From positions 224,001 through 288,000 of the forward strand of contig OZ250172.1 of NCBI GenBank assembly GCA_965237905.1: DNA of 64,000 nucleotides, written 5' to 3'. The stretch is from Nitrospinaceae bacterium. Its GTDB lineage: Bacteria > Nitrospinota > Nitrospinia > Nitrospinales > Nitrospinaceae. The notes below the pieces were generated by a model. It was given only the letters and a program-made list of their open reading frames with translations, was not told the DNA's origin and ran no database searches. Both the position numbers and the translations under genes were made by a program. Positions 17,884 to 54,822 of the stretch are shown piece after piece (the first letter of the stretch is position 1; each line of letters starts with the position of its first letter).

Positions 17884-17898
17884 TTAAAAATTCCCCCC

Positions 17899-17985
17899 GG
17901 AATTGCTGCTAAGGAAAGTGTGTTGGGTAAAAGGTGGGGCCGCTGATTGCTCGACTCACGACTCTACATCTTTGTATTTTATACC
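17899..17985 (-). repeat. mtnP upstream leader/promoter segment, copy 1 of 3
   Basis: Aligns with 21810-21896 and 23484-23571 (aattgc...taaggaaagt..gttgggtaa.aggtggg...acga.tctac.tcttt.ta.tttatacc). Confidence 0.85.
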
Positions 17986-18072
17986 ATTATCTGCTTTTTT
18001 CAAAGCAAAGCTTTGACCGGGGAGCGTCTCAGCTTGAAGCCGACTGTCTCCGAACGGCCAATAGCGGACATT
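17986..18072. repeat. Inverted-repeat spacer element, right-half copy A
   Basis: ctttgaccgg...gactgtctccgaacggccaatagcggacatt matches the right halves of 22503-22619 and 24132-24247. Confidence 0.85.
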
Positions 18073-18103
18073 CGGCTGAGGAGAGTTTAACAGAAAATGC
18101 CTC

Positions 18104-18307
18104 TTAACTTTTTACCTCAAATGGTTCACATTCCGCTGACGGGAAACACATGTGCTTCAGCTCCAGTGTTGAATAATGCGTGGTCATGCTCACTCCAGAT
18201 TTGTGACCGATCAAAAATTTCCGGTCTTCTTCTGGAACCCGCGCCACTCTCAACCTGGCACCCAATGTGTGCTTTAAATCGTGAACGCGAACAATTTCAA
18301 CCCACAA
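18104..18307 (-). pseudogene. C-terminal fragment of a tyrosine recombinase/phage integrase
   Basis: RVHDLKHT, LIGHKSG and TTHYS motifs (box II and catalytic Tyr); only 67 aa, N-terminal part missing. Confidence 0.8.
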
Positions 18308-18851
18308 ACCTCAGCGAGGCGAAACTCAACTTGCAACATATCTTACTTGTGTACAAATACAATTCGCAGCTATTGACTATTTTCCCCACCCGCGGTTACA
18401 TAAAAATCACTTGGACCTCTCACCTTCCGAATCCGGCCTGTCCTTGTACCGTCAATTTATCCGTGATATAAAAATCGAAAGCTCCACAAATCCAAGCTCA
18501 TGGTATTACTGGAAGGACTCTGTAATGTATCCCTTGATCTTATTGGTAGTTTTAATTTCTTTCCTTATATGGCTCCCCTACGTTTGTGCAAATTTTTTGC
18601 GCCAACAAAAATCAAATCTGCAAACCAAAATCATTAAAAATATAACAAAAGACGCTGAAGAGGTGGGTGTTGGCATAACCCAGACGACCAACATTTTAAT
18701 TTTTATAAGAAGTGTTTTCACTATGTTAAGACCACTTCCTCATAAAGAATTTTAGGACTGTCGGCTGATGACTAACCTTAAACTCCTAGAAAAAATTACA
18801 GGTGAACCTAATTTAACCAGACTTAAACATGAATCAATGAAAGGACTCGCT

Positions 18852-19997
18852 ATGATTTCTTTAAGTTTTAACGATACGATCAAATACTTGGTTATTTTTT
18901 CAATGTTCTACCTTGGTGGCTGTGCTGGTTACTCAGCCGCCCTTGATACCAGCACCTGTACACAACGAGGTGGAACTGTTCAGGATGTATGTGTGCATAG
19001 GGATCCTTACAACCTCGCAAACTGTCTACGCGTCGAAAGTCAATGTATGGGGTCAATGACCCACGACGAATATAATAAACAAGCGAAGGAAACCCGGAAA
19101 CAAAAGTATAGGGAGGAAGTGTACTCTTCGCCCAATGAAGCGCTAACAAACGCGGCTTACGATGGTGACGCCACAAAGGTGAAAGCCTTATTGGCAAAGG
19201 GCGCCAATATTAACAATAAAGACAAGTATGGTGGGACGGCCTTAATGAATGCGTCTTTGAAAGGACATGAGGCCGTAGTGAAGGTGCTACTGGCAAGAGG
19301 AGCTAAACTCGACCTTCAATCAAGTGATGGCTGGACGGCATTGACGATGGCTTCTAAGAGAGGACATGAGGCTATTGTGAAAATGCTGCTGGCCAAGGGG
19401 GCTGCTGTAAACATTAAATTTCACAGTGGTGGGACGGCAATCGATGTGGCAAAAACTGAAAAAATTCGGCAACTACTCAAGGCGGGTGGGGTTTCAACTC
19501 CTTCTTCGGCGCAAGCATCCTCTTCGGACAATGAAGCACTATTGGCCGCGGCTTGGAATGGTGACGCCGCAAAGGTGAAAGTCTTGTTGAGAAAGGGCGT
19601 CAACATTAACCATACAGATACGCATGAAATAACGGCATTGATGATGGCGTCTCAGAAAGGGCATGAAGCTGTGGTGAAGATACTGCTGGCAAAAGGAGCT
19701 AAACTCGAGCTTCTATCAACTCTTGGCTGGACTGCTTTGAGGATGGCGTCTGCGACAGGACAAGAGGCCATAGTGAAGATGCTGCTGGCCAAGGGCGCCA
19801 AGATTGACACTCAAGATGGGATGGGTGGTGAGACGGCCTTAATGTTTGCGTCTCGGTTAGGGCATGAGGCCGTAGTGAAGATCCTGCTGGACAAAGGAGC
19901 AGACATAAGCCTTAAAGATAACTTTGGAAAGACGGCCCTCAATAAGGCAAATACTGAAAAAGTTTGGAAACTGCTCAAGGCGGCTGGGGCAAAGTAA
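18852..19997 (+). CDS. Ankyrin-repeat lipoprotein 1
   Basis: AAGGA RBS, lipobox LGGC, Cys-rich segment, two blocks of G.TAL..AS..GHEA.VK.LL.KGA repeats. Confidence 0.88.
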   Translation: MISLSFNDTIKYLVIFSMFYLGGCAGYSAALDTSTCTQRGGTVQDVCVHRDPYNLANCLRVESQCMGSMTHDEYNKQAKETRKQKYREEVYSSPNEALTNAAYDGDATKVKALLAKGANINNKDKYGGTALMNASLKGHEAVVKVLLARGAKLDLQSSDGWTALTMASKRGHEAIVKMLLAKGAAVNIKFHSGGTAIDVAKTEKIRQLLKAGGVSTPSSAQASSSDNEALLAAAWNGDAAKVKVLLRKGVNINHTDTHEITALMMASQKGHEAVVKILLAKGAKLELLSTLGWTALRMASATGQEAIVKMLLAKGAKIDTQDGMGGETALMFASRLGHEAVVKILLDKGADISLKDNFGKTALNKANTEKVWKLLKAAGAK

Positions 19998-20198
19998 TTC
20001 TTCACTCGTCACACAAACCAAAGGCTTTCGTCGGTGACGCCTGATAGGTGCAAGCCTTGTTAGAAAAATGACGCCAACATTGACCATCAAGAATTTTAGG
20101 ATAGTCGGATGATGACTAACCTTAAACTGCTTCTGAATATATTTACAGGTGAACCTAATTTAACCAGACTTAAACATGAATCAATGAAAGGACTCGCT

Positions 20199-20795
20199 AT
20201 GATTTCTTTAAGTTTTAACGATACGATCAAATACTTGGTTATTTGTTCAATATTTTACCTTGGTGGCTGCGCTGGTATGTCATCCTCCATGGATACCTTT
20301 CCTTCTTCGGGGCAAGCGTCCTCTTCGGACAATGAAGCACTAGTTGTCGCGGCTAAAAATGGTGACGCCGCAAGGGTGAAAGCCTTGTTGGAAAAGGGCG
20401 CCAACGTTAACTATCTAAAGAAGAATGATGTGTCGGTCTTAATGTATGCGTCTCAAGATGGGCATGCTGCCGTAGTAAATATCCTGCTGGCAAAGGGCGC
20501 CAACGTTAACCATAAAGATAATATTAGCTGGACAGCATTGATGATAGCGTCTGCATCCGGGCATGAGGCCATAGTGAAGGTGCTTCTGGCAAAGGGCGCC
20601 AACGTTAACAATAGAGATAAAAATGGCGGGACAGCTTTATATTATGCGTCTTTTAAAGGGCAGGAAACAGTGGTGAAGATGTTGTTAGCCAAGGGGGCAG
20701 ACGTAAGCACTAAAACTTCTAAAGGTAAGACAGCCCTCAGTCAGGCAAAAACTGAAAAAATTCGGCAAATGCTCAAGGCGGCTGGAGCAAAGTAA
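20199..20795 (+). CDS. Ankyrin-repeat lipoprotein 2 (paralogue)
   Basis: Near-identical leader and signal peptide to gene 1; single ankyrin block. Confidence 0.88.
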   Translation: MISLSFNDTIKYLVICSIFYLGGCAGMSSSMDTFPSSGQASSSDNEALVVAAKNGDAARVKALLEKGANVNYLKKNDVSVLMYASQDGHAAVVNILLAKGANVNHKDNISWTALMIASASGHEAIVKVLLAKGANVNNRDKNGGTALYYASFKGQETVVKMLLAKGADVSTKTSKGKTALSQAKTEKIRQMLKAAGAK

Positions 20796-20938
20796 TTCTT
20801 CACTCTAAAGCCTCTAACTATCAAAACCAGTTATTTTTAAAACCGTGTATGTCTTCAAATGAATCTGGACAGGAGTTGGAAAATTTCTAGAGGTACATTT
20901 GGCTTATAGTCCTTCGATAATTTTTTTAAGTTTAAGTT

Positions 20939-20996
20939 AAGAAACCCTGGTATTGAGACTTTGTTGTCTACTCAGTTCCAGGGTTTTTCTTTTATT
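20939..20996 (+). terminator. Hairpin plus T-tract downstream of the ankyrin genes (terminator or element end)
   Basis: AAACCCTGG (20942-20950) / CCAGGGTTT (20978-20986) followed by a T-rich run. Confidence 0.5.
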
Positions 20997-21039
20997 TGGT
21001 TTCAGCAAAGTTTATTTATGCTTTACAAAGGATCTGGCA

Positions 21040-21121
21040 AACGTCTGCTTTGGGTCGATTCCAGCCATTTAAATTCCTAACTGAGACACACCCTTTGAGG
21101 GAGCAGGCGTAAATCAGCCTT
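21040..21121. repeat. Inverted-repeat spacer element, left-half copy B
   Basis: aacgtctgctttgggtcgattccagccatttaaattcctaactgagacacaccctttga is nearly identical to the left halves of D and E; divergent right end abuts the stop at 21120. Confidence 0.88.
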
Positions 21122-21326
21122 ATATTCTCACAAAATAGGGTAGAGCCACTAAAACCGTGCCTGCAATTACAAGCACGTATACGTTCGATATAAAATACGG
21201 AATGACAAATAGAGCGATGCCGGTCATTAGTGGAACTACCGCCTTTTGTTTTTTCCCATATGTAAAGAATCCGAGGCCAAGTGCTCCGAACAGCATTCCC
21301 CACATAAGCAGCGATGTACCTTCCAT
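21120..21326 (-). CDS. Small membrane protein (68 aa), cassette gene
   Basis: Hydrophobic ORF with GLGFFTYGKKQ; stop overlaps the end of element B. Confidence 0.75.
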   Translation of the reverse strand: MEGTSLLMWGMLFGALGLGFFTYGKKQKAVVPLMTGIALFVIPYFISNVYVLVIAGTVLVALPYFVRI

Positions 21327-21345
21327 AATGACTTACCCATTGTTC

Positions 21346-21768
21346 TTAGCGGATCCAGCCCTTGCTCTCGGCTCGCTTCGAATACCAGATCAAAAACGCC
21401 GTCACCACCAACTGCATCAGAACACCCATCCAAATTTCGAAGGAACTAAATCCGGCCACGCCAAATATATGCATCATTGACACAATCACGCCAAGGAGCG
21501 ACGCGATTAATACATAGAACGCGGCCGACTTCCTGAGCAGAAGCAGGAGACAGCCCAACGTTCCGCCGAAAACGGCTATCGCAAAAGCTGCGGTGGCCCA
21601 TGCGGGTCGGCCTTCGATTATCGGGCGATACGACTCAGGAAACGAGGCGAGCGAGTCTGCATTCATCTGTGCGAAGTAATTGATGACGCCCATAACATTA
21701 AAAATAAGTGTGACAACGCAAATTATCCAAAAACTCCAATGAACACCACCAACGTTTTCATCGTTCAT
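21346..21768 (-). CDS. 4-TM membrane protein, cassette gene copy 1
   Basis: AAGGAGG RBS before ATG 21768; P.WATAAFAIAVFGG.LG.LLLLLRK; near-identical to 23027-23449. Confidence 0.85.
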   Translation of the reverse strand: MNDENVGGVHWSFWIICVVTLIFNVMGVINYFAQMNADSLASFPESYRPIIEGRPAWATAAFAIAVFGGTLGCLLLLLRKSAAFYVLIASLLGVIVSMMHIFGVAGFSSFEIWMGVLMQLVVTAFLIWYSKRAESKGWIR

Positions 21769-21809
21769 TACATCCTCCTTCTGCCTGTAACTCCACAAGC
21801 AGTTCATCT

Positions 21810-21896
21810 GGAATTGCAAATAAGGAAAGTGAGTTGGGTAACAGGTGGGGTCGTTGATCAACCCGCTGACGATTCTACTTCTTTATATTTTATACC
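21810..21896 (-). repeat. mtnP upstream segment, copy 2 of 3
   Basis: Direct alignment with 17899-17985. Confidence 0.85.
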
Positions 21897-21992
21897 CTTG
21901 CCCAAGCACAAGAAACCCCGCTCTAGTCGGGGCCTCATCCTGGTCCTCGGTTCTTCTTGTTATGCGCTGAGTCGAGGGGAAGGGCGGACCTT
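21896..21992. repeat. Divergent spacer element H
   Basis: Right end gggcggacctt overlaps the stop at 21991; left stub ccttgccc as in copy F; interior differs but contains hairpins. Confidence 0.5.
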
Positions 21993-22479
21993 ATCTGGAC
22001 CTGTGCGCTTCCAGCTCGATCTCGATCATGAACCCGGGCAGGGCGAGCCCTTTGACCTCGAGCCAGGTTCCGGTCGGAAACTGTTTTGTGTAGATCGAGT
22101 TACGATACGAAGCGACCTCGAGAAACTTCGCCATGTTGGTCGTATAGACGTTCTCAACCATCACGTCGTCGAAGGTATAGCCGTAGTGCTTCAGAACCTT
22201 ATCCAGATCGGAGTAAGCGTTTTTCATCTGCTGCTCCAAATCGCCGACAGCTGTCGGGTTGCCCTCATCATCCATGCTCACGGCGCCCGAGATCTTGATG
22301 TCATCACCGATCTTCACGGCATGCGTGTAGCCGTAGGCCTTTTCGACCTCCGGTCGCAAAAGGAAATACTCCGGCATTTCTTTCGCCAGCACGATCGTCT
22401 CGTCGGATTCCGGGCCGGGGCAGCCGGACAGGAAAGCCAGGAAGAGTGTTGCAAGGACGAGCAGTGATTTTTTGTTCAT
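21991..22479 (-). CDS. Rid (YjgF-like) family protein with lipoprotein signal, cassette gene
   Basis: Lipobox LSGC; GYTHAVKIGD, ISGAVS, LALPG.MIEIE; GAGGAG RBS. Confidence 0.85.
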   Translation of the reverse strand: MNKKSLLVLATLFLAFLSGCPGPESDETIVLAKEMPEYFLLRPEVEKAYGYTHAVKIGDDIKISGAVSMDDEGNPTAVGDLEQQMKNAYSDLDKVLKHYGYTFDDVMVENVYTTNMAKFLEVASYRNSIYTKQFPTGTWLEVKGLALPGFMIEIELEAHRSR

Positions 22480-22502
22480 TGTTTTTCTCCTCAGATTTGT
22501 CG

Positions 22503-22619
22503 AATGTCCGCTTTGGGTCGATTCCAGCCACTTAAATTCTTAACTGAGACACACCCTTTAACTGGATAGTGTGCCCCAGTTTAAAACCGGGTGTCTCCAA
22601 ACGATCTAAAGCAGTCACT
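22503..22619. repeat. Full-length inverted-repeat spacer element D (117 nt)
   Basis: Outer arms 20/29 complementary; inner arms 22542-22554 and 22569-22581 11/13 complementary. Confidence 0.9.
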
Positions 22620-22992
22620 CAATATTATCAACCACTTGGCTTGGATAGGACATTTCCAGCACGACACATCCATCCTCTGATTTGAATGGTCCATGTATTT
22701 CACCGGGTGGTCGGCTTGCGTAGTCTCCAGCTTCAAGCCATTGATCAAAAGCAGTATCATAAATTCTGCCTTCCAGTATCATTATTTCTTCCGGGTAATC
22801 ATGACTTTTCTCACCAAATGCGGATGTATCTGCACCGGGTTTGAATCGGGTCAGCCTTGTATAGTCACCGGTTTCATGATCAATGGCTAGAGTCAACTCC
22901 TCCGCATACTCTTCCATACCGTCAATTGGACTCCAAAGAGATTTATTTTCAATCTGCAATGGGTTCCAGTATGTTTTAGTTGTCTTAGCCAT
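22615..22992 (-). CDS. ChrR-like cupin protein, cassette gene
   Basis: TRLTRF.PG, H.YPEE..ILEG, GDYASRPPG..HGPF. Confidence 0.85.
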   Translation of the reverse strand: MAKTTKTYWNPLQIENKSLWSPIDGMEEYAEELTLAIDHETGDYTRLTRFKPGADTSAFGEKSHDYPEEIMILEGRIYDTAFDQWLEAGDYASRPPGEIHGPFKSEDGCVVLEMSYPSQVVDNIE

Positions 22993-23026
22993 TATATATT
23001 CTCCATTAATGACTTACCCATTGTTC

Positions 23027-23449
23027 TTAGCGGATCCAGCCCTTGCTCTCGGCTCGCTTCGAATACCAGATCAAAAACGCCGTCACCACCAACTGCATCA
23101 GAACACCCATCCAAATTTCGAAGGAACTAAATCCGGCCACGCCAAATATATGCATCATTGACACAATCACGCCAAGGAGCGACGCGATTAATACATAGAA
23201 CGCGGCCGACTTCCTGAGCAGAAGCAGGAGACAGCCCAACGTTCCGCCGAAAACGGCTATCGCAAAAGCTGCGGTGGCCCATGCGGGTCGGCCTTCGATT
23301 ATCGGGCGATACGACTCAGGAAACGAGGCGAGCGAGTCTGCATTCATCTGTGCGAAGTAATTGATGGCGCCCATAACATTAAAAATAAGTGTGACAACGC
23401 AAATTATCCAAAAACTCCAATGAACACCACCAACGGTCTCATCGTTCAT
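23027..23449 (-). CDS. 4-TM membrane protein, cassette gene copy 2
   Basis: Differs from copy 1 at two residues in the translation. Confidence 0.85.
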   Translation of the reverse strand: MNDETVGGVHWSFWIICVVTLIFNVMGAINYFAQMNADSLASFPESYRPIIEGRPAWATAAFAIAVFGGTLGCLLLLLRKSAAFYVLIASLLGVIVSMMHIFGVAGFSSFEIWMGVLMQLVVTAFLIWYSKRAESKGWIR

Positions 23450-23483
23450 TACGTCCTCCTTCTGCCTGTAACTCAGTTCATCT

Positions 23484-23571
23484 GAAATTGCAAATAAGGA
23501 AAGTTTTGTTGGGTAAAAGGTGGGCTCGTTGATCAACCCGCTGACGACTCTACTTCTTTATACTTTATACC
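23484..23571 (-). repeat. mtnP upstream segment, copy 3 of 3
   Basis: Direct alignment with 17899-17985, continuing into element F just as copy 1 continues into element A. Confidence 0.85.
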
Positions 23572-23653
23572 CTTGCCCGCTTTTAGCAAAGCTTTGACCG
23601 GGGTGTGTCTCAATTTGAAGGCGACTGTCTCCAAACGACCAAAAGCGGACCTT
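23572..23653. repeat. Inverted-repeat spacer element, right-half copy F
   Basis: cttgcccgctttt...aaaagcggacctt; closely matches copy A; overlaps the stop at 23652. Confidence 0.88.
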
Positions 23654-24089
23654 AACTAGTTACGCTGGCCCACAGATAAACAACAAACGACAACCCGCTG
23701 ACTATGCTCCGTACCCAATGCCGGGGCGCCCATTGATTTAGCAAGTCTTCAGTTTCCGAATCCGAGCGTTGCGCATTTGGATCCAACAACTGATCGTTGA
23801 TCGGCTTGAGCACGACTACCGTGAACGGAATGATGAAAACCAGAAGCGCGGCTCCGATGGCCCAAAGAGGATCGCGTAATAGATACCACTGAATGAGTCC
23901 CGCCAGTGTACCGCCGACCGCTGAGAATATTTGCATAGGCGCGGCGAGATTGTACATCGGAGGAAAAAACTTGGCCGCAAACGGAACGCCTGCTTTCATT
24001 GAGGCCGGATGTTGTGCAACAGAGATGTAAACTGCTGCCCCAAAGAATGTTCCGCACAGAAAAAGCGCGATGATCTCAACGAAAATCAT
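23652..24089 (-). CDS. DUF1772 / anthrone oxygenase-like membrane protein, cassette gene
   Basis: F.GAA.YIS...HP, PFT....PIN.QLL, LL..W...HWVR motifs. Confidence 0.8.
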   Translation of the reverse strand: MIFVEIIALFLCGTFFGAAVYISVAQHPASMKAGVPFAAKFFPPMYNLAAPMQIFSAVGGTLAGLIQWYLLRDPLWAIGAALLVFIIPFTVVVLKPINDQLLDPNAQRSDSETEDLLNQWAPRHWVRSIVSGLSFVVYLWASVTS

Positions 24090-24131
24090 TTGTATTTACC
24101 CGGTTAGTGATTTTACGAAATTGAAACTCAT

Positions 24132-24247
24132 AATGTCTGATTTGGGTCGATTCCAGCCATTTAAATTCCTAACTGACTCACACCCTTTGACCGGATAGTG
24201 CCTCAGTTTGAAGCCGACTGTCTCCAAACAGTCTAGAACGGACGCTT
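24132..24247. repeat. Full-length inverted-repeat spacer element E (116 nt)
   Basis: Colinear with D over its whole length. Confidence 0.9.
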
Positions 24248-24280
24248 CACTACTTAGGGAGATTTTGGAAACCATGAAGT

Positions 24281-24895
24281 TTATCTCTTACGCTCCCATC
24301 GCTTAACATAGTCGTTTATATACCAGTCAAAGAGCTTCTTTAGACTTTCTTCGGAGAAAAGTGATTCATCATATTTTGTCCCGCCTTGTTTTTCTGCGCA
24401 ATCCAGTCTCATGTCTTGAGTATCGGGTCCTTCAGAACCTATGTAACCAAAAACGGGGTTTAATTTTTCGGCAACACCTTTACAACATTCAGCAAATTTT
24501 TGTAGCTTCTTGAAATCAGCTTGGCTGGAATCTTCCGTGAACCCCCAGAGAACATCTTCGCAAATACTGACGGAAACACCAGCATTATCAAAATCAACCA
24601 CAAGAGACAAGTATGTGTATGCATCGACCAACCAGCCGATAAAATTGACTATACAATGGCTTACTTTGTGACCCTCTGTATAAGCCAAAAACTCTTCCAT
24701 CTCTCCCGCAGAAGCGACTTTATCTGGAACGATCGGATCATCACCATAGGCCAACAAAGGTTCTGCTTCTAACAGGGCAAATCCGCGGCTGTTAATTATT
24801 TTTATTAGCGTCAGTAAGCTTCCAACTGGAAGTTCTTTGCATGACAACAAACATTCTAAGTCTGCACCTCCGATAGATGGCTTACGGTGTTCCAT
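24281..24895 (-). CDS. Hypothetical acidic protein, cassette gene
   Basis: 204-aa ORF between element E and stub G. Confidence 0.7.
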   Translation of the reverse strand: MEHRKPSIGGADLECLLSCKELPVGSLLTLIKIINSRGFALLEAEPLLAYGDDPIVPDKVASAGEMEEFLAYTEGHKVSHCIVNFIGWLVDAYTYLSLVVDFDNAGVSVSICEDVLWGFTEDSSQADFKKLQKFAECCKGVAEKLNPVFGYIGSEGPDTQDMRLDCAEKQGGTKYDESLFSEESLKKLFDWYINDYVKRWERKR

Positions 24896-24925
24896 GGTTA
24901 TGGCCTTACAATTTCCATAGGATTG

Positions 24926-24938
24926 AATGTCCGCCTTT
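24926..24938. repeat. Stub G of the spacer element
   Basis: aatgtccgcctt at the gene junction, abutting the stop at 24937. Confidence 0.6.
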
Positions 24939-25620
24939 AAGGCAACTCATTAATTGTTAAGAATCTTTCTGTATCCTCATCACCTAAAAGTAATACAGGT
25001 TCAGGGCCACCATCGAAATTTTTTATTGCGGCAATTAAAAAGTGCTTAGTTTGAGAACGAAGAAATGAATGAGCTTTAATAGTGACTATATGTTTACCAT
25101 CACCTGCCCATGATTTATCTTTATTTTCCCCCCAGTATGGAGAACCTACTGGTATTTCATTTGAAACACGCCTTGGGAAAGTAGCGATTCTGTATTTTTT
25201 ACATAGATTATCTTCAACTAAATCAAATTTATCTTGGGTCAAGATAAATTTACTAACAGCATGATCAATTGAAGCATATTGAGTTACTTGAATTGAAAGA
25301 CGGACATTTTTAATTCTTGTTACAAATTGCAAGCCACAAATTGCCTGATAATAATATTCATTATCTTGAAACTTAGATCCTAATACAAAATGATCTACAA
25401 TAAATATCTTTTGTTTACTTTTGAGCCATTCCCTAAAATTTGATTGCTCATTAAATAGGTCTGAATATATAACACCTATTAAAAAAAATAATGAAACAAC
25501 AAATAGCCATATCCAAGGAAGATTTGCATATTTTGAGTTAAAGTGTTGCGTTAGCCATTGCTGCGATAGCCACACAGTAAGCGTAATAAAGGTAGAAATA
25601 CCTGGCAATGCATACTTCAA
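24937..25620 (-). CDS. Hypothetical AT-rich protein with two N-terminal TM helices
   Basis: 227-aa ORF, GAGGAG before a TTG start 25 nt after the asd stop. Confidence 0.7.
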   Translation of the reverse strand: MKYALPGISTFITLTVWLSQQWLTQHFNSKYANLPWIWLFVVSLFFLIGVIYSDLFNEQSNFREWLKSKQKIFIVDHFVLGSKFQDNEYYYQAICGLQFVTRIKNVRLSIQVTQYASIDHAVSKFILTQDKFDLVEDNLCKKYRIATFPRRVSNEIPVGSPYWGENKDKSWAGDGKHIVTIKAHSFLRSQTKHFLIAAIKNFDGGPEPVLLLGDEDTERFLTINELP

Positions 25621-25645
25621 TATTGGCTCCTCATAATAAGGAAGA

Positions 25646-36973: not shown

Positions 36974-39907
36974 ATGAGTCCTGTTCAAGCAAAGCCTGCT
37001 AAATCAACGAAGTCACTTAAACCGACTCAGCCGGGCAAGCCCGCAGGCAAGCCTGCGAAACCGGTTGCCAAGTCCTCCTCTGCCGCCCCAAAAAAGGCAC
37101 AAGGACGCCGTGCTTCGGACAAATTAAAACCCGTTGTTAATCGAATATTGTCTTCGGAAAGCATTACCAAAACCCTTTTTGAACTTACCGAAGAATTACA
37201 ACAACTCTTTGAAGCAGACAAAGTTACGGTCTATGCCATTGACCGTCCCAAACGACAACTGTTCTCACGCAATTTTGCATCCTCTGAAAGTCAGGAAATA
37301 CGGGTCGATATTTCCCCAAAAAGTTTGGCGGGTTTTGTCGCTGCTTCAGGGCGCACTCTCAATATTCACGATGCCTATGACAAAGGGGAACTTGGCAAAA
37401 TTCATCCCGAATTGAATCTGGATACCAAATGGGACAAAAAACTGGGTTATAGAACTACATCTTGCCTAATCGTTGCCTTGCCTCATAACAAAAAATTGAT
37501 GGGTGTCCTTCAAATCATCAATAAAAAATCGGCACCTCATTTTACCGATGAGGATGTACGACTGGCGAAAGAACTGGCCGGTACCCTGGGACACTGCATC
37601 GTCAAAATGCAGTCGGAAATTATCGAGGAGAAAATTCAGGCAACCTCGCACGCCATTCATACCGCGTCCACCTTGCAGGAGATCCTGATCGAATTGCGAA
37701 TGCCCATCCTTCAATTATTCGAATGCAAAATGGTCACTATCTATGCGGTGGATAAGGCAAAAAATGAGATCTACTCTCAGGTTCGTCCGGGAGACACATT
37801 GGAGGAAATACGCCTCCCTATTTCTCCAAAGAGCATTGCCGGCTGTGTGGCTGTGGAGAAAAGGCCGGTTAACATCAAAAACGTCAATGACCAGGTGGAA
37901 CTGGTTAAATATCATCCGGAATTGGCGTTTGATAAATCCTGGGATTCTCTATCGGGAGAACAAGCCAAAAGCATGCTGGTTTGTCCTTTGATCCATGAAG
38001 GGGAATTGATGGGTATCCTCCAACTGGTCAACAAACAGAATGAGGAACCCTTCAACGTCAACGATGAAAAATGTATTTTGGCGATAGGCCAATCCCTGTC
38101 ACTGGCACTTTATAATCAGCAAAGACAAGCTAAAACCAAACCGACCAAGTTCAGTCACCTGATCAACAATGGGCTATTAAGCCAGGAAGAATTGACCAAA
38201 GCGATTACCCAGGCCCGCACCAATGGGATCGATATCGAAGCGATTCTTTTAAATGAATTTAAGATTAAGCGAGCTGATTACGGTAAATCCCTGGAGGAAT
38301 TTTACAAGGTTCCCTATGTGGGTTACTCAGTTGAGGTGGTCCTGCCGCAGTCCCTTTTTACCGGCCTCAACACCAACTTCCTGGCCAAAAATAATTGGCT
38401 GCCGATTGAAAAGAGCGCTAACAAAGTCACCATTCTGATCGATAATCCTGCCAATCAGGACAAGATTCAGAACATCAAGCTGATCTTCTCCAAAAAGGCT
38501 CTCGAATTTAAAGTGGGCCTTAAAGCGGACATTCATGATTTCCTCAAAGTCACCCCGGATGGGTCCGGCATAGATGATGACGACGAAGATCCCGTAGAGA
38601 CCGAAGAGGTTTCGAGCCTGCTGGATGCTCTGCAAAGTGAAGCGGATGATGCGGCGGTCATTGATACCGCTCAAGATGATGATTCCAATGCTATCAGCGA
38701 AACGGACAGTACCATCGTCAAACTGGTCAACAAAATCCTGATCGATGCTTATGATATGGGGGTTTCAGATATTCATATTGAACCGGGCGTAGGAAAGAAG
38801 CTCATGAGAGTCCGCTACAGAAAGGACGGGGCCTGCCGGATTTATCAGGAAATTCCACCGATGTACAAGCAAGCTTTCATTTCCCGCATCAAGATTATGT
38901 CCAGATTGGATATTGCAGAACGGCGCATGCCCCAGGATGGCAAAATCAAAATGAAATACGGTAAAAAAGAAATTGAATACCGTGTCGCGACCTGCCCGAC
39001 CGTAGGCGGCAATGAGGACGCCGTTTTGCGTATTCTGGCCGCAAGCAAACCGATTCCCCTAGAGAATATGAACTTATCTACAAGAAATCTGGAGTTGATC
39101 CATACTTATGCAGAAAAGCCATATGGTTTGATCTTGTGCGTGGGCCCTACCGGGTCCGGTAAAACCACGACCCTTCACTCCACTCTGGGTTATATCAATA
39201 AGCCTGACAGAAAAATATGGACTGCCGAGGACCCCGTTGAAATAACTCAGGAGGGCCTGCGTCAGGTTCAGATGCTACCCAAGATCGGCTTGGATTTTGC
39301 TCGGGCCATGCGTTCGTTTCTGCGTGGCGACCCGGACGTCATCATGGTGGGTGAAATGCGCGACGTAGAAACCTGCTCCATCGGTTTGGAAGCGTCCTTA
39401 ACAGGTCATCTGGTGTTCAGTACCCTGCATACAAACTCCGCGCCGGAAACCATTACCCGCCTTCTGGATATGGGGATGAATCCTCTGAACTTTGCCGACG
39501 CCCTGCTCCTCATCATAGCTCAAAGATTGGTGAGAACCCTGTGTAAAGATTGTAAAGAAGACCATCATCCAACTCGCGAAGAATATGAGCAATTGGTTCA
39601 TGAATATGGTAGTGAGGAACTCTTCAATAAAAACATTGCTATCGCTTATTCCGATGGACTCCTCCTTAAGAAGCCCGTTGGATGCTCCAAATGCAACGAC
39701 ACCGGCTACGCCGGGCGAACCGGTATCCATGAGGTTCTGGAAGGAACCGATGAAATCAAGCGCATGGTCATGAAGCAAGCTCTGATGGAAGAGCTAAGAG
39801 ATCAGGCTGCCAGCCAGGGAATGACGACCTTGAAACAGGATGGTATCTGGAAAGTTTTCAAAGGGGATTGTGATTTAAAGCAAGTCATGTCGGTCTGTAT
39901 TGTTTAA
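36974..39907 (+). CDS. GAF-GAF-PilB/GspE family secretion ATPase 1
   Basis: Two GAF domains, SDIHIEP, GPTGSGKTTT, EDPVE, MVGEMRD, STLHTN, tetracysteine motif. Confidence 0.92.
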   Translation: MSPVQAKPAKSTKSLKPTQPGKPAGKPAKPVAKSSSAAPKKAQGRRASDKLKPVVNRILSSESITKTLFELTEELQQLFEADKVTVYAIDRPKRQLFSRNFASSESQEIRVDISPKSLAGFVAASGRTLNIHDAYDKGELGKIHPELNLDTKWDKKLGYRTTSCLIVALPHNKKLMGVLQIINKKSAPHFTDEDVRLAKELAGTLGHCIVKMQSEIIEEKIQATSHAIHTASTLQEILIELRMPILQLFECKMVTIYAVDKAKNEIYSQVRPGDTLEEIRLPISPKSIAGCVAVEKRPVNIKNVNDQVELVKYHPELAFDKSWDSLSGEQAKSMLVCPLIHEGELMGILQLVNKQNEEPFNVNDEKCILAIGQSLSLALYNQQRQAKTKPTKFSHLINNGLLSQEELTKAITQARTNGIDIEAILLNEFKIKRADYGKSLEEFYKVPYVGYSVEVVLPQSLFTGLNTNFLAKNNWLPIEKSANKVTILIDNPANQDKIQNIKLIFSKKALEFKVGLKADIHDFLKVTPDGSGIDDDDEDPVETEEVSSLLDALQSEADDAAVIDTAQDDDSNAISETDSTIVKLVNKILIDAYDMGVSDIHIEPGVGKKLMRVRYRKDGACRIYQEIPPMYKQAFISRIKIMSRLDIAERRMPQDGKIKMKYGKKEIEYRVATCPTVGGNEDAVLRILAASKPIPLENMNLSTRNLELIHTYAEKPYGLILCVGPTGSGKTTTLHSTLGYINKPDRKIWTAEDPVEITQEGLRQVQMLPKIGLDFARAMRSFLRGDPDVIMVGEMRDVETCSIGLEASLTGHLVFSTLHTNSAPETITRLLDMGMNPLNFADALLLIIAQRLVRTLCKDCKEDHHPTREEYEQLVHEYGSEELFNKNIAIAYSDGLLLKKPVGCSKCNDTGYAGRTGIHEVLEGTDEIKRMVMKQALMEELRDQAASQGMTTLKQDGIWKVFKGDCDLKQVMSVCIV

Positions 39908-40024
39908 GCCTTAAGATATTTCAGGTGAGACATACGACATTACCATGCAGTACTTGATTTGTTTTTTGTAGCCACTTCACTCTAAATCATCTCCTCATTA
40001 TTATTAAATGCACAGGAAATTTTT

Positions 40025-42850
40025 ATGCCTATCATATCGTCTTCAGGCAATGAGACCGTCCAATTAATTAACTCCCGGATTGTTTCCGCATCCAATGCCA
40101 CGTCCCTGCTACCCGGCATTGTTAACGATTTAAAAAATATTCTTTCCTGTGAAGCCATTGTCCTGTTCCTGGTGGACCGGAACCAGAAACAACTCGTTTC
40201 CCTGAATCATATTTCCAGCAAGGTATCTCAAATCCGGGTGGACATGTCGCCTAAAACTCCCGTGGGGTATGTCACGTCTTATGGGAAAGCGCTCAATATC
40301 AGCGATAAAATTTCCAAAGCAGAGCTGGCGATGTACAATCCCAACATGACAGTTTCTTCCAGCCTGGATAAACCCCTTAAGCTGAAAACCAAATCCATGA
40401 TGGTGATCCCCCTGCCCTTTCAGCAAAAACTGGTGGGTGCTGTGGAAATCATCAATAAGCAAGGCGACCAAAAGTTCACAGCCTCCGATTTCAAGATTTC
40501 CAAGGAATTGGCACATCCATTAGGATTACTTGTTTCCAAAATAAAAAATGAGAGCGGCGCAACCCCTACGCTTTCGCCTGTGGATCCACAACAAAAATTA
40601 TTTCAAATAATCAATGCCATTCACTCAGCAAAAAATGTAGACGAAATATTGATCGAATTGAAACTCTCCATTCTGGAACTGTTCAATGCTTCCCTGATCA
40701 CCATCTATGCTATCGATGCGAGTAAGAACGAGGTCTATTCGAAGCTGAAATCGGGTGACACCGTCAATGAAATCCGAGTCCCCATTTCATCCACCAGCGT
40801 TGCAGGATATGTAGCCATGTCCCAACAAACGGTCATGGTCGAAAATGTACACGACCCCAAACAATTAAAGCAATATCATCCAGATCTATCTTTTGACAGT
40901 TCATGGGACAAAAAATCCGGCTTTAAAACCAAAGGCATGCTGGCTTGCCCCCTGATCCATAAAGGCCGATTGATGGGTATTATTCAGCTCGTCAACAAAA
41001 AAGGGAGTGGAAAATTCAATGTGTCTGATCAAAAAAATGCTCAGATGATTTCCGAGACATTAGCGCTTGCCTTTTTCAATCAAACCAAATTTGTCCATCA
41101 AAAACCCACAAAATTTTCCTACCTCACGAACAATGGAATTATTACTGAACGGGAACTGACGGAAGCCATCGGCAAGGCTCGCAGGAACCAGATGGATATC
41201 GAGACTATCCTTTTACATGAATTAAAAGTAACGCGAAAAGATTTGGGGAAATCACTGGAACAGTTCTACAAGGTTCCTTATCTTGGCTATAACAGTTCCA
41301 TGGTGTTGCCCCATTCGGTATTCGAAGGATTGAATCTGAGTTTTCTCTCAAAGAACTTCTGGGTTCCCATTGAAAAAATTGGCAACAAGGTAGTTGTTCT
41401 GATAGACAATCCCTTCAACAAAGACAAAATTCAAAATATCAAACTTATTTTCCCAAAGAAGACTGTCGAATTAAAAGTAGGGCTAAAAAACGATATCCGG
41501 GATTTTTTAAACTCCACTGTTACTGATAACGATGATGGTTCAGCATCCGTTGATGAAATGTCCGACCTTTTGCATGCCCTGAGAACAGAAAAAAGAGAAT
41601 CTGACACCGAAATAGAACCGGAAGATAGGGATCTCAACGCAATCAGCGAAGAGGACGGCACCATCGTCAAACTGGTCAACAAAATCCTGATCAATGGTTA
41701 TGACGAAGGGGTTTCCGATATCCACATTGAACCCGGAGTCGGAAAAGACAATATGGAGGTGCGGTACCGAGTCGATGGGACTTGCCGGGTCTTCCAGGAA
41801 ATCCCGCCGATGTACAAACAAGCGGTATTATCCCGGTTGAAGATCATGGCCCGATTGGATATTGCCGAACGACGCATGCCGCAGGATGGTAAAATCAAAA
41901 TGAAATATGGCAAAAAAGAGATTGAATTTCGTCTGGCCACTTGTCCGACCGTAGGGGGCAACGAAGACGCGGTGTTGCGTATTCTCGCCGCCAGTAAACC
42001 CATTCCTCTGGATAATATGAACTTTACCCGGCGGAACCTTCAATTAATTAAAAAAATGGCCACCAAACCTTATGGACTGATCCTCGCGGTCGGCCCCACA
42101 GGTTCCGGTAAAACGACGACCCTTCACTCCGCTCTGGGTCATATCAACACCCGGGACAAAAAAATCTGGACCGCAGAAGATCCTGTGGAAATCACTCAAA
42201 AGGGTCTACGCCAAGTCCAGATGCTACCCAAGATCGGTTTGGATTTCGCACGAGCCATGCGTTCGTTTCTCCGTGGCGACCCGGACGTGATCATGGTCGG
42301 TGAAATGCGCGACGTGGAAACCTGTTCCATCGGTTTGGAAGCCTCACTGACAGGTCACCTCGTATTCAGCACCCTGCACACCAACTCCGCCCCGGAAACA
42401 ATCACCCGTCTTATCGATATGGGCATGAATCCGCTCAACTTTGCAGATGCTTTATTGTTGATTATTGCCCAGAGACTGGTCCGTACCCTGTGCAAGGATT
42501 GCAAAGAAGATTATCATCCTTCTCAAAAGGAATTCGAAATTCTCGTTAGGGAATACGGGGTTGAAGACTTTCGAAAACTGGGTATCCAGTACACCAACGA
42601 CCTGCGTTTGAAAAAACCCGTCGGATGCTCCAAATGCAACGACACGGGTTATTTAGGCCGAACCGGATTGCACGAGGTTCTGGAGGGCACGGATGAAATC
42701 AAGCGGATGATCATGGAGAAATCTCTGGTGGAAGAAACAAGAGCTCAGGCCATTAAGGATGGAATGACCACTTTGAAACAGGATGGGATACTCAAAATAT
42801 TCAAGGGCGATTGTGACCTTAAGCAGGTTTTAGCCGTCTGTATCGTTTAA
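40025..42850 (+). CDS. GAF-GAF-PilB/GspE family secretion ATPase 2
   Basis: Same architecture and motifs as the upstream paralogue. Confidence 0.92.
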   Translation: MPIISSSGNETVQLINSRIVSASNATSLLPGIVNDLKNILSCEAIVLFLVDRNQKQLVSLNHISSKVSQIRVDMSPKTPVGYVTSYGKALNISDKISKAELAMYNPNMTVSSSLDKPLKLKTKSMMVIPLPFQQKLVGAVEIINKQGDQKFTASDFKISKELAHPLGLLVSKIKNESGATPTLSPVDPQQKLFQIINAIHSAKNVDEILIELKLSILELFNASLITIYAIDASKNEVYSKLKSGDTVNEIRVPISSTSVAGYVAMSQQTVMVENVHDPKQLKQYHPDLSFDSSWDKKSGFKTKGMLACPLIHKGRLMGIIQLVNKKGSGKFNVSDQKNAQMISETLALAFFNQTKFVHQKPTKFSYLTNNGIITERELTEAIGKARRNQMDIETILLHELKVTRKDLGKSLEQFYKVPYLGYNSSMVLPHSVFEGLNLSFLSKNFWVPIEKIGNKVVVLIDNPFNKDKIQNIKLIFPKKTVELKVGLKNDIRDFLNSTVTDNDDGSASVDEMSDLLHALRTEKRESDTEIEPEDRDLNAISEEDGTIVKLVNKILINGYDEGVSDIHIEPGVGKDNMEVRYRVDGTCRVFQEIPPMYKQAVLSRLKIMARLDIAERRMPQDGKIKMKYGKKEIEFRLATCPTVGGNEDAVLRILAASKPIPLDNMNFTRRNLQLIKKMATKPYGLILAVGPTGSGKTTTLHSALGHINTRDKKIWTAEDPVEITQKGLRQVQMLPKIGLDFARAMRSFLRGDPDVIMVGEMRDVETCSIGLEASLTGHLVFSTLHTNSAPETITRLIDMGMNPLNFADALLLIIAQRLVRTLCKDCKEDYHPSQKEFEILVREYGVEDFRKLGIQYTNDLRLKKPVGCSKCNDTGYLGRTGLHEVLEGTDEIKRMIMEKSLVEETRAQAIKDGMTTLKQDGILKIFKGDCDLKQVLAVCIV

Positions 42851-51662: not shown

Positions 51663-52623
51663 TGGCGGCTGAGGGATAAAGTGGATTTTTGATTTGTTTC
51701 AATTTCTTTTTGAGGGATGCCACCCCTTTTTCCCCGATCTCGTTTCCCCACATTCTAAGAAACTGAAGGCTGGCCAACACTTTGGAGCCGGCTAAATACA
51801 TGGCCCCCTGGGTGGTAATGCCGTTCCACTGCAAATCAAGCTCAACCAGGTTTTTAAAAACCGGAGACTCGGTCATGGAAAGCATCCCTTGGTCCCCCAA
51901 TTTGTTATTTTTGAGCAATAGGGTCTTGAGATTTGTCAGCGTCTTGGATTCGGCGATGCTCTGGATGCCATCCGGACCAATTTTGTTTTCCCCCAAATCT
52001 AAAATTTCAATATGCGTTAAATATTTGGATTGGCATAATATCTTAAGCCCCCTGTCGCTGATTCCGTTTTTCGCCAGTCTTAACTCTTTGACGCTGCCGA
52101 TAACTTCCGACTGAGCCAAAGCCTTGAGGCCCTCGTCCCCGATCTGGTTTCCAGTGAGATCCAACGAAACCAGTTTCATTACCGTTTTGGACTCGGCGAT
52201 GGCTTCGGCCCCCTTGGGTCCAATTTTGTTCCCGAACAAACTGATCGTGGATAATTTGGGATATGCCTTGGACCCGAACAGAGCTTTCACGCCATCGTCC
52301 TCAATCTGATTATTGAATAGATTGAGGACCTTCAGATTCTTTAAATATTTAGACTGGGCAAGCGCTTCGGCACCATCGTCACCGATATTGTGGGTATTCA
52401 GGTCAAGGGTTTCTACCTTTTCAAGAAGTTTCGATTCGGCCAATTGCTTGATACCTGCGTCATACAGCATTCCGCTGTGATTCAGCTTCAGATATTTGCC
52501 ATCCTTCTTCAGATCCTTAAGGACGAGCACATTGATATCCAGGGCAAAAGCAGTCCCAGCCAGAAGCAAAATCATCGCTCCCAGCCAGTTCATCCCTATT
52601 ATTTTTATCCGATTTTTTTTCAT
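51655..52623 (-). CDS. Exported leucine-rich-repeat protein (RNI-like)
   Basis: Signal peptide; repeats L..LDL..N.IG..G..ALA.S. Confidence 0.88.
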   Translation of the reverse strand: MKKNRIKIIGMNWLGAMILLLAGTAFALDINVLVLKDLKKDGKYLKLNHSGMLYDAGIKQLAESKLLEKVETLDLNTHNIGDDGAEALAQSKYLKNLKVLNLFNNQIEDDGVKALFGSKAYPKLSTISLFGNKIGPKGAEAIAESKTVMKLVSLDLTGNQIGDEGLKALAQSEVIGSVKELRLAKNGISDRGLKILCQSKYLTHIEILDLGENKIGPDGIQSIAESKTLTNLKTLLLKNNKLGDQGMLSMTESPVFKNLVELDLQWNGITTQGAMYLAGSKVLASLQFLRMWGNEIGEKGVASLKKKLKQIKNPLYPSAASD

Positions 52624-54770
52624 GGGAAATTATGCACCGTTATACGAACTTCCAAACCATCCTGCAACCAGCCGATATTGCTGTTTCCGGCAACCGTCGA
52701 AATGATCCCCTGAGGATCGATTTTCCGGATTCGGTTGTTATCCCGGTCTGAAAAGTAAAGATTCCCCTCTTTATCGAAAGCCATGCGGTAGGGGCTTTTC
52801 AATTGCGCCTGGATTGCAAGGCCGCCATCACCACCATAACCGGCAAAGCCTGTCCCCGCCACATGGATGATATTTCCTTCCTTATTTATTTTGCGGATGC
52901 GGTGACTGGTTTCTTCCGCGATATACAATTCTTCATCAGGGCTGAAGGTGAGTCCTCCCGGAGATCGAATTCCCGCCTGAATCGCCGGTCCGCCATCGCC
53001 GGAATCCCTGAATTCCCCCGTCCCGGCAAAAGTCGTCACATTCTCGTCCTGGTCAATTTTTCTGATTTTACTACTTCCCGAGTCGGAAATAAATATTTCT
53101 CCACTTTTATTAATGGCAATTCCATTGGGATGAATTTCTTCATCCACAATTTTCACCCAAGTGTCCGACGCCAGAGTGGACACAACCCCCTGAGTGTCCA
53201 CCTTACGGACTTTCCGGTTGGTCAGGTCCGCCAGGTAGACATTACCCTGACGATCCACCGCTATGTCCTGAATCACTCCAAACGATGCCTGGACCGCCGG
53301 ACCGCCGTCTCCTTTATCTCCCAACACCCCATTTCCGGCAAACCGGGTTATTCTGCCTTGAGGATCAATCTTTCGGACAAATTTGCTGCTTCCCTGCGGA
53401 GAAACGAAGTAAATATTGTCTTTTGGGCCCACGGCCATGGATCCCGGCAGGTAAAGAGAAGCCTCAGAAACCGGCCCGCCGTCCCCCTCATTGCCCTGAT
53501 GACCGGACCCTGCAAGGGTGTAAATAAAACCTTTGCGGTCGATGAAACGCAGACGGTTATTCATTTTATCGGAAAAAAGGACATTGCCTTTGCTGTCCAC
53601 CCCGATTCCAGAGGGAAATTCCAGGGTAGCGCCCGCCCCCGGTCCCCCGTCGCCCCGAAACCAGGAGTTTCCGTTACCCGCAAGGGTTGTAATGGAGTGG
53701 GATTTCAAATCCATACTTCTGACCCGGAAATGATTGCGGTCCACGATAATCAATTTCCCATCGGGACTCAACGCCAGCGCGAAGGGCAAATGAAGGGTCG
53801 TTTCAGAAGCAATTTCATTATCCCCGTTATATTCATACTTGCCGATTCCCATAACGGTAGTCATGATACCCAACGAATCCACCTTACGAATGCGGTTATT
53901 ATTCCGGTCCGCAATGTAGAGGTTGCCTCGGTCATCGACGACCACATCGGTGGGATAGGCCAGACTGGCCCGCGTGGCCGGACCGTAATCACCGGCGAAA
54001 AAATGGGTGCCGTCACCGGCAACAGTCGTGATGATCCCCTGGGTATCCACCTTGCGAATACGATTATTGCCCCGGTCGGCAATGTACAGATTACCCTTAT
54101 TATCCAGATCAATCCCAAACGGATATTTCAGAAAGGCATCCGTGGCCGGGCCAAAATCCCCGCCAAACTCGGGGAGTCCTAATCCAACTACCGTGGATAT
54201 CATCCCCTTGGAATTCACTTTTCGAATACGATTATTGGACCGGTCGGAAATATACAGATTGCCCTTGCCATCACACACCAAGTCGGATGGGTAATTCAAA
54301 TGGGCTTCCACGGCCGGGCCGCCATCGCCTCCCATATCGGGAGCACCCTTCCCGACCACGGTGGTCACGATCCCCGATGTGTCTATCCGGCGAATGCGAT
54401 GGTTATTACGGTCTGCCACATATAAATTCCCGGTTCGATCCAGACACAACCCTGCAGGAAAATTAAAAGAAGCTTTCAAAGCCGGGCCGTTATCTCCGCT
54501 GAACCCCGCCGTTCCATTACCCGCAATGGTGGTGATGATGCCGTCCTTACCCACCTTGCGTATCCGGTTCTTGGATCGATGCGATATAAATAAATTGCCC
54601 TCCGAGTCGACAGCTATCCCATCGACCAAGGTCAAAATCACCTCCATCGCTTTTTTACCGTCGCCGATGTCCTTGTAAGGATAAGGACCCGGATCCGCGC
54701 TTACGCCCGCCCCAGACAACAGTACGGCAAAGAACCAGGCGATTGGAACTATCTTTTTTATTATTTCCAT
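52620..54770 (-). CDS. Exported NHL-repeat beta-propeller protein
   Basis: Signal peptide; about 12 repeats of GNLYIADR.NNRIRKVD..GIITTVAG.G. Confidence 0.92.
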   Translation of the reverse strand: MEIIKKIVPIAWFFAVLLSGAGVSADPGPYPYKDIGDGKKAMEVILTLVDGIAVDSEGNLFISHRSKNRIRKVGKDGIITTIAGNGTAGFSGDNGPALKASFNFPAGLCLDRTGNLYVADRNNHRIRRIDTSGIVTTVVGKGAPDMGGDGGPAVEAHLNYPSDLVCDGKGNLYISDRSNNRIRKVNSKGMISTVVGLGLPEFGGDFGPATDAFLKYPFGIDLDNKGNLYIADRGNNRIRKVDTQGIITTVAGDGTHFFAGDYGPATRASLAYPTDVVVDDRGNLYIADRNNNRIRKVDSLGIMTTVMGIGKYEYNGDNEIASETTLHLPFALALSPDGKLIIVDRNHFRVRSMDLKSHSITTLAGNGNSWFRGDGGPGAGATLEFPSGIGVDSKGNVLFSDKMNNRLRFIDRKGFIYTLAGSGHQGNEGDGGPVSEASLYLPGSMAVGPKDNIYFVSPQGSSKFVRKIDPQGRITRFAGNGVLGDKGDGGPAVQASFGVIQDIAVDRQGNVYLADLTNRKVRKVDTQGVVSTLASDTWVKIVDEEIHPNGIAINKSGEIFISDSGSSKIRKIDQDENVTTFAGTGEFRDSGDGGPAIQAGIRSPGGLTFSPDEELYIAEETSHRIRKINKEGNIIHVAGTGFAGYGGDGGLAIQAQLKSPYRMAFDKEGNLYFSDRDNNRIRKIDPQGIISTVAGNSNIGWLQDGLEVRITVHNFP

Positions 54771-54822
54771 TAATCTATTACTTTTAAATATTTATATATA
54801 TTTTATTAAAGTAATACTTCAT

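Follow-up and report, generated by a model that had tools for sequence, protein, structure and literature searches.

A probable dif-module-like cassette array, partly decayed and without its own enzyme, between asd and mtnP of a Nitrospinaceae genome

The window analysed here is a 64-kb stretch of a Nitrospinaceae genome (the source genome, G000, positions 224001-288000), and the subject is the interval between asd and mtnP within it. Eight short minus-strand open reading frames (ORFs) are present at 21120-25620, as a first-pass annotation had reported, and the cargo that it named is borne out by Pfam matches for Rid, cupin and anthrone oxygenase/DUF1772. Gene starts 23, 42 and 30 nt past the end of a repeated element also agree with the coordinates. 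The locus is interpreted, with a probability of about 60%, as a partly decayed array of exchangeable modules, in which two kinds of 12-6-12 site (L and R) lie in a frame of IS1-type insertion sequence (IS) ends and the cargo would be swapped by a small tyrosine recombinase acting in trans. The features of the array are as follows, in coordinates of the 64-kb stretch.

17899-17988, minus strand: P, the host region upstream of mtnP (repeat comparison; same region in relatives)
21810-21899 and 23485-23574: duplicates of P, a 90-bp region with three copies in total (repeat comparison)
18012-18019, plus strand: 8-bp target site TTTGACCG, left copy of the target duplication
18020-18038, plus strand: IS1-type terminal inverted repeat, decayed
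18043-18072, minus strand: R dyad A, spacer TGGCCG
18073-18145, minus strand: inner end of ~70 bp beside R sites, recurring with several different outer flanks
18104-18307, minus strand: C-terminal remnant of a tyrosine integrase of prophage or integrative mobilizable element type, cargo
18768-19997, plus strand: ankyrin-repeat gene 1, cargo of the first frame (Pfam)
20109-20795, plus strand: ankyrin-repeat gene 2, cargo of the first frame (Pfam)
21040-21101, plus strand: end B, with L dyad at 21040-21069 (spacer GGGTCG), IS1-type repeat at 21075-21093 and target copy at 21094-21101
21120-21326, minus strand: 68-aa membrane-like ORF, no Pfam or NCBIfam match
21346-21768, minus strand: 140-aa membrane gene, copy 2, with a homologue in the proS frame of G009
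21810-21899, minus strand: P duplicate fused to the Rid 3' flank, the R end being lost there
21897-22502, minus strand: body of the Rid module, gene at 21991-22479 (Pfam)
22503-22619: junction D, with L dyad at 22503-22532, IS repeat at 22538-22556, 8-bp copy at 22557-22564, then IS repeat and decayed R dyad to 22619
22615-22992, minus strand: ChrR-type cupin gene (Pfam), stop codon overlapping the R arm
23027-23449, minus strand: 140-aa membrane gene, copy 1
23485-23653, minus strand: end E, with P duplicate at 23485-23574, target copy at 23593-23600, IS repeat at 23601-23619 and R dyad at 23624-23653
23652-24089, minus strand: anthrone oxygenase/DUF1772 gene (Pfam), stop codon overlapping the R arm
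24132-24246: junction F, with L dyad at 24132-24161, IS repeat, TTTGACCG at 24186-24193, IS repeat at 24194-24212 and decayed R dyad at 24217-24246
24281-24895, minus strand: 204-aa ORF without family match
24926-24937, plus strand: stub G, an inner arm alone
24937-25620, minus strand: 227-aa AT-rich ORF (32% GC) without family match

Repeat copies are indeed found at 21040, 22503, 24132, 18020-18072 and 23601-23653, whereas the positions 17986, 21896 and 23572, also listed by the first-pass annotation, mark the end of the duplicated 90-bp host region. In particular, there is no element copy at 21896; a P duplicate is fused there to the Rid 3' flank, together with a stub at 21978-21993. The supposed full copies at D and F are each two frame ends back to back, with an 8-bp copy of the target site between them. 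The reported difference in GC content between genes is real (32-54% over whole genes), but the Rid gene has 54%, not 63%. The plus-strand ankyrin genes (18768-20795) and the integrase remnant (18104-18307) inside the first frame had been overlooked. An 8-bp copy resembling TTTGACCG flanks a one-gene frame on both sides at asd-mtnP in two relatives (G006 and G007), and by comparison with G006 the frame end nearest asd, beyond the 227-aa ORF, is missing from the window. Junctions D and F have mutated internal R spacers, deletions have removed one R end and the last L end, and the block of P and the membrane gene is duplicated, the two gene copies being identical at 446 of 450 nt. The array thus reads as old, repeatedly reloaded, partly decayed and dependent on a visiting enzyme.

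A single inverted-repeat element working in the manner of attC, as first proposed, does not describe the repeat, which is a composite. Its 53-54-bp end, present in seven copies in the window and at five genomic positions elsewhere (together the training set), consists of an outer 19-bp IS1-type inverted repeat with an 8-bp target duplication and an inner 30-bp dyad of lox/dif-like 12-6-12 form. Treated as one widespread element, the whole 54-bp end gave no match to strict patterns in viral contigs and GTDB, and plasmid matches covered the core only. The terminal 19 bp, GGTAGTGTCTCAGTTWGAA, matched at least 135 GTDB loci. Among 78 distinct IS ends (L059-L147), 35 are paired, and 26 of these 35 have an 8-bp target duplication (match at 7 or more of 8 positions). 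A transposase of ~300 aa is common to 26 loci of the IS group and is closest to IS1; two of three sequences score above the cut-off of Pfam DDE_Tnp_IS1, and all three have NCBIfam IS1 as best match but below its cut-off. No such transposase was found in G000 or the element with tblastn and hidden Markov models run on G000. This divergent IS1-like group (L068-L147, e.g., L084, L112, and L136), presumably the one named ISMhu11, occurs in many taxa with a highly conserved 19-bp terminal repeat and 8-bp duplications; many members carry passenger genes, many are miniature elements of 90-360 bp, and the NCBIfam IS1 score lies below the cut-off. At 559208-559212 of G000 (L365:2709-2713), an IS-type repeat supplies the stop codon of an upstream 585-aa host gene, and this stop codon may have led to fixation of the frame in the lineage.

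Real IS1-type ends with 8-bp duplications, in a group whose members carry passenger genes and form miniature elements, would also fit a simpler account, in which non-autonomous IS1-type cassettes are moved whole by a transposase that repeatedly strikes the same target, the dyads being passive. Repeated insertion at one 8-mer is, however, unlikely because 27 different target duplications in the IS group argue against a target preference, the terminal G is missing from all five proS left ends, and frames cluster by locus (L, p = 0.002; R, p = 0.04). Of 144 IS ends elsewhere, only 1 has the inner 18-mer within 120 nt, and the dyad is therefore an entity separate from the IS end. The lack of the transposase in G000 and the occurrence of dyads and the Rid module without IS ends point the same way, and a Rid copy at 2.67 Mb with unrelated outer flanks largely refutes the movement of whole IS cassettes, which is very improbable overall.

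A single ~760-aa gene occupies the asd-mtnP interval of other genera (all five loci viewed), and sites were found in none of 12 asd-mtnP loci of other genera and families. Some congeners, as well as other genera (L005-L007, L009-L018), retain a coiled-coil-like gene of ~690-760 aa between asd and mtnP, which is deleted in G000, G001, G005, G006, and G008 (window 17884-17990).

The inner dyad spans 30 bp and reads AATGTCCGCTTT, a 6-bp spacer and AAAGCGGACATT as the inverted arm. Two spacer classes, GGGTCG (L) and TGGCCG (R), dominate in the loci sampled, the L count being inflated by the search seeds and the dyad searches being seeded on the motif. When the 18-mer alone was searched, the next 12 bases read AAAGCGGACATT and carried no information thereafter (124 distinct metagenome sites). 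In the seeded searches, dyads with a 6-bp gap numbered 153, versus 14 with gaps of 5 or 7. Adjacent sites follow a strict orientation pattern: L-L pairs have the same orientation in 28 of 32 cases and R-R pairs in 4 of 5, and L-R pairs are opposed in 43 of 44. No site was found in 726,791 reversed bases. The 18-mer is present in 26 of 41 relatives (control, two matches) and the L motif in 16 of the 20 other genomes of the family; longer core patterns were too strict, matching 1 of 46 and 4 of 121 genomes. Dyads without IS ends lie in clusters between accessory genes of relatives, in Alphaproteobacteria-class genomes and in at least 124 metagenome stretches. Sites also extend beyond asd-mtnP in G000, with 20 strong sites (score ≥22, a cut set after the list was seen) in seven genome clusters. 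Nineteen of these 20 lie outside ORFs of at least 150 aa, and in comparison ORFs contained 122 of 150 positions drawn at random. With the cut at ≥14, the genome gave 41 sites and the reversed genome 30 uncollapsed calls, so the weak calls are noise.

Viral spread of the sites was considered and rejected, the 18-mer matching two viral contigs, in both within a coding gene, as was a structured RNA, since no Rfam family came near the gathering score. Two recurring inner end segments (~70 bp by R and ~120 bp by L) move with different cargo in the window (18073-18145, 20853-20900) and in L001, L243, L308, L328, L373, and L374, each ending in GTGGACCA, which is variant-arm-like; these ends may belong to a nested site family of a second kind. 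In the metagenome loci L282:1-12018 and L237, dyads are densely arrayed and mark most gene junctions. Read in frame, the dyad creates ORF starts that are spurious, for example MSAFDPKR, and these may contaminate annotations. IS30-like transposases or ends occur directly at dyads in relatives (L035:8471-9760; L033:7224; the L035 family was read by eye), an annotated IS30 adjoins the recombinase described below on a plasmid (L348), and IS30-like elements may target dyad sites.

The cargo between the sites differs among relatives. At asd-mtnP the gene content varies, as the first-pass annotation had anticipated, and its proposal of a separate site family bounding exchangeable genes is upheld by orthologous frames that carry different cargo with breakpoints at the sites. 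At proS, seven genomes have all or part of the same frame, and the cargo differs except in G004 and G009, both with SelO: PrsW; a methyltransferase pair; a formate/nitrite transporter pair; five membrane genes; SelO; a KefB-like gene; and SelO with the membrane gene of the window (labels without a Pfam match were read from the sequence, and the G001 contig lacks the length to reveal the frame). At tgt, a single TGCGAATC marks the empty locus of G006, and the filled genomes have two; the five filled frames each hold different cargo. Over 55 orthologous pairs, identity is 0.71 in the IS repeat, 0.82 in the outer arm, 0.97 in the spacer, 0.83 in the inner arm and 0.26-0.33 in the inner flanks. 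Identity falls to the random level at the inner arm, and the inner flanks are common to only 2 of the 55 pairs. In cross-context comparisons (eight hand-picked pairs), identity ends at the outer spacer edge in 8 of 8, and 18 bp is all that is common at the breakpoints. Metagenome contigs diverge from the window at 18055 and 22520, both spacer edges. The Rid module has a second copy in G000 at 2670413-2671018 with unrelated outer flanks, and it occurs in G007. The G000 and G007 modules are 99.5% identical, versus 83.7% for mtnP, and the module was transferred recently between the two species.

Such turnover could in principle be produced by homologous recombination in repeats and in the flanking core genes, with the dyads being repeats like repetitive extragenic palindromes (REP) or miniature inverted-repeat transposable elements (MITE), or protein-binding sites. 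The occurrence of sites in seven clusters of G000 and in many taxa would suit this explanation, as would the fact that allele replacement via flanking core genes can spread filled loci among strains. It is nevertheless improbable: the 18 bp shared at cross-context breakpoints, an asymmetric spacer that is conserved better than the arms (0.97 vs 0.83), the strict L/R orientation rule and the site-free asd-mtnP loci of other genera and families all speak against it. Site-specific exchange of modules at the dyads is very probable.

The first-pass annotation had also stated that the sites are not attC, and indeed the RYYYAAC..GTTRRRY pair (strict motif) is present on neither strand in any of seven elements. 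Single-strand folding is weak (z from -2.4 to +0.9 over 12 folds), with structures that differ between copies. An integron-type array with unusual attC sites (a cluster of attC sites lacking an integron integrase, CALIN) would share with the locus its short co-oriented genes, stop codons overlapping the site and typical cargo; given absent attC core pairs, seemingly weak hairpins and half-sites at both module ends, this identity is barely conceivable. A module here carries a half-site at each end, L and R with different spacers, rather than one downstream hairpin, and the closest analogue is therefore the dif module and not the integron.

A recombinase acting in trans had been postulated, and linkage now offers a concrete candidate. 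In two metagenome loci (from two blast matches), a putative tyrosine recombinase of ~205 aa is no more than ~100 nt away from a site. L282, one of these two loci, forms an array of 12 kb in which most gene junctions carry co-oriented L sites. When 28 further loci were picked by the recombinase protein alone and sites called at score ≥12, 10 of 25 loci had a site in the 200 nt downstream and 9 of 26 had one upstream. The control counts were 0 of 13 for other integrases, 4 of 325 for other ORFs and 5 of 1500 for random windows. The downstream sites are R-type, 14-37 nt past the stop codon, with the strong arm pointing away. In the pooled loci, a minus-strand site lies no more than 75 nt from the stop codon in 11 of 33. 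An L site occurs in 5 of 10 recombinase-positive versus 8 of 56 negative genomes (p = 0.02), and arrays adjoin the recombinase in L282, L400, L402, and L403 (G306, which holds L400, and G324 are genomes with such arrays). Residues R59, K87, H156, R159, H182, and Y191 are conserved in 58 sequences, and the N-terminal motif is PWNKGK. A structure model (predicted local distance difference test, 82) matches the catalytic domains of XerH, XerA, and Cre. The core-binding domain of Xer, Cre, and IntI was not found in this model of 208 aa, where the catalytic domain has just ~25 low-confidence residues and one helix ahead of it, and Xer models score far below cut-off on the protein. The family is large, with 8000 of 8000 candidates scored passing E ≤ 1e-30 and 383 plasmids carrying a member, and it is patchy (3 of 120 genomes of this phylum, 3 of 101 sampled from another phylum and 7 of 67 selected genomes). 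No relatives were confirmed in viral contigs. From its linkage to the sites, the ~205-aa protein is likely their enzyme.

Two other candidates were rejected. For the integrase remnant at 18104-18307, a site within 1.5 kb is seen in 0 of 15 related loci; for the 202-aa recombinase near 2.658 Mb of G000, there is no site in 7 kb, a result that covers this gene and not its relatives. No integron integrase is linked to the array as judged by PF00589, which has five matches in G000, none in the window and the nearest ~40 kb away. In L400:1065-9160 (G306), a GInt-like trio (PF00589, PF13009, and a small ORF) is followed by the short recombinase and then by small genes with L sites between them. Across L337-L398, a GC-rich hairpin lies directly 3' of most recombinase genes (first 40 nt), its 3' arm overlapping the R site, even at low-scoring sites. 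On Escherichia, Klebsiella, and Shigella plasmids the recombinase occurs with variant-spacer dyads, in L344 (NZ_CP021681.1) ~1.2 kb from IS26. The region 2654000-2671100 of G000 (L399, L369) forms an island of low GC containing serine-recombinase-like genes, a tyrosine recombinase of 202 aa and a cluster of patatin, nucleotidyltransferase, and E2-like genes that by eye resembles a cyclic-oligonucleotide-based anti-phage signalling system (CBASS); it ends in four dyads and the second Rid copy.

Several observations weigh against exchange by this enzyme at these sites. The main weakness is that the recombinase was found neither in G000 nor in any of 20 other family genomes (several are 70-89% complete), yet the Rid module moved recently. 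An all-against-all comparison of 547 ORFs from 154 loci gave no recurring family beside the sites. No site of score ≥12 lies on either side in 13 of the 28 recombinase loci, and a holdout of eight plasmid loci was weaker (downstream 2 of 8, one in the other orientation; upstream 1 of 8). The count of 8 of 56 omits four site-bearing, recombinase-negative genomes (G160, G180, G245, and G207); G160 came from the IS-end set, and 9 of 57 is a fairer negative count. The loci are related, so the p-values overstate the significance. L frames cluster by genome too (p = 0.03). L faces the gene start in 25 of 40 cases and R the gene stop in 22 of 29, so gene orientation at the sites is a bias and not a rule. 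Two inner-arm positions differ between junction D of the window and the Rid end of G007. No joint of an excised circle and no cointegrate was found among assembled contigs aligned to the window, where rare circles could escape.

The same absence from the family, and the site-free half or so of the recombinase loci, would be expected if the module system is right and the enzyme is another, the host Xer or another tyrosine recombinase, with the PWNKGK gene a frequent passenger module. A 6-bp spacer is typical of Xer sites, and the dyad has one. Set against this are the site behind the recombinase, in a fixed place and orientation across several taxa with its strong arms outward, unlike at cargo genes; the two dyad arms, which form one palindrome, unlike XerC/XerD arms; and the nearest G000 relative of the enzyme (E 6e-10), which has no site in 7 kb. 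A different enzyme is accordingly rather unlikely, and the short PWNKGK recombinase is retained as the candidate.

The proposed course of events is as follows. In an ancestor of some members of the genus, a non-autonomous IS1-type element with one L and one R site would have entered TTTGACCG a single time, and other loci as well. L would recombine only with L and R only with R. If like spacers recombine and unlike do not, a module between inverted L and R cannot excise or flip alone; an L x L and then an R x R crossover (cointegrate, then resolution) would replace the cargo and keep the frame. Segments between two direct L sites could excise and reinsert, giving rise to arrays. The tandem frames at junctions D and F and the P duplicates could stem from duplication or from a frame circle integrating at a matching site. 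The enzyme would be the ~205-aa PWNKGK recombinase, consisting of a catalytic domain only and itself bounded by sites, visiting on plasmids or islands.

Analogous to the dif modules of Acinetobacter plasmids (pdif/XerCD), modules here are bounded by inversely oriented sites, as the L-R pairs illustrate. By the dif consensus, the sites differ in that both arms are AATGTCCGCTTT, whereas the XerC and XerD arms of dif are distinct; no host dif site was found. Unlike dif modules, the present ones have two dominant spacer classes in the loci sampled, are chromosomal and occur in several bacterial groups, and they likely depend on a dedicated mobile recombinase rather than on host XerCD. In dif modules, matching spacers recombine, and for single modules a cointegrate route of replacement that keeps the left and right spacers has been proposed (PMC13141974); the frames here likewise hold different single modules between matching left and right spacers. 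Like integrons and CALINs (IntI, attC), the system forms arrays of short unrelated accessory genes with stop codons touching the site, its arrays outlast the enzyme, and a recombinase gene can stand beside the array (L282, L400). Unlike them, it shows double-stranded dyad logic, without RYYYAAC/GTTRRRY cores and apparently without a strong single-strand hairpin, its genes lie in either orientation, and the Rid module keeps arm and spacer at both ends, whereas an integron cassette has one downstream site. The 19-bp terminal inverted repeat and 8-bp target duplication are those of IS1 elements with passengers and their miniature derivatives, but here they form a frame only, with decayed ends, no transposase and cargo exchanged inside at the dyads.

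Cassette exchange by Cre/lox with heterospecific spacers is a laboratory method, and it resembles the present system in symmetric arms, an asymmetric spacer and two spacer types around the cargo. The system here is natural, with 12-6-12 instead of 13-8-13 sites, and the candidate enzyme is without the core-binding domain of Cre (208 aa versus ~320-aa chains). GInts, RIT and BIM elements likewise combine tyrosine recombinases with variable cargo, and one array here follows a GInt-like trio. As far as the accessible text of PMC3414803 and PMC5385486 goes, they move as whole elements with terminal repeats, and they have no sites between cargo genes and no single 205-aa enzyme. The system works like dif modules, looks like an integron array and fails the defining site tests of both. 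It is probably an undescribed dif-module-like form of cassette exchange, with the window as a partly decayed, enzyme-less example. No description of the site or enzyme was found in the literature, of which subscription journals and supplements could hold one, and neither is described in the accessible portions of PMC8138268, PMC3414803, PMC13141974, PMC7986276, and PMC5385486.

Whether this amounts to a third widespread cassette system beside integrons and dif modules is evenly balanced. In that case a minimal recombinase family of thousands would exchange cassettes between two incompatible 6-bp-spacer sites, making any element that bears L and R (IS ends, islands, satellites) a reloadable landing pad. 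If true, it would provide a mechanism by which single accessory genes appear and are replaced at fixed genome spots without integrons, a target site and role for a very large unnamed recombinase family, and a recombinase of ~200 aa with two naturally orthogonal sites. The enzyme-site pair is open to direct test with a simple reporter.

Elsewhere in the window, a tandem duplicated coding block of ~2.95 kb and several 81- and 168-nt coding repeat families (repeat proteins) are seen at 37293-42850 and 52108-55389.

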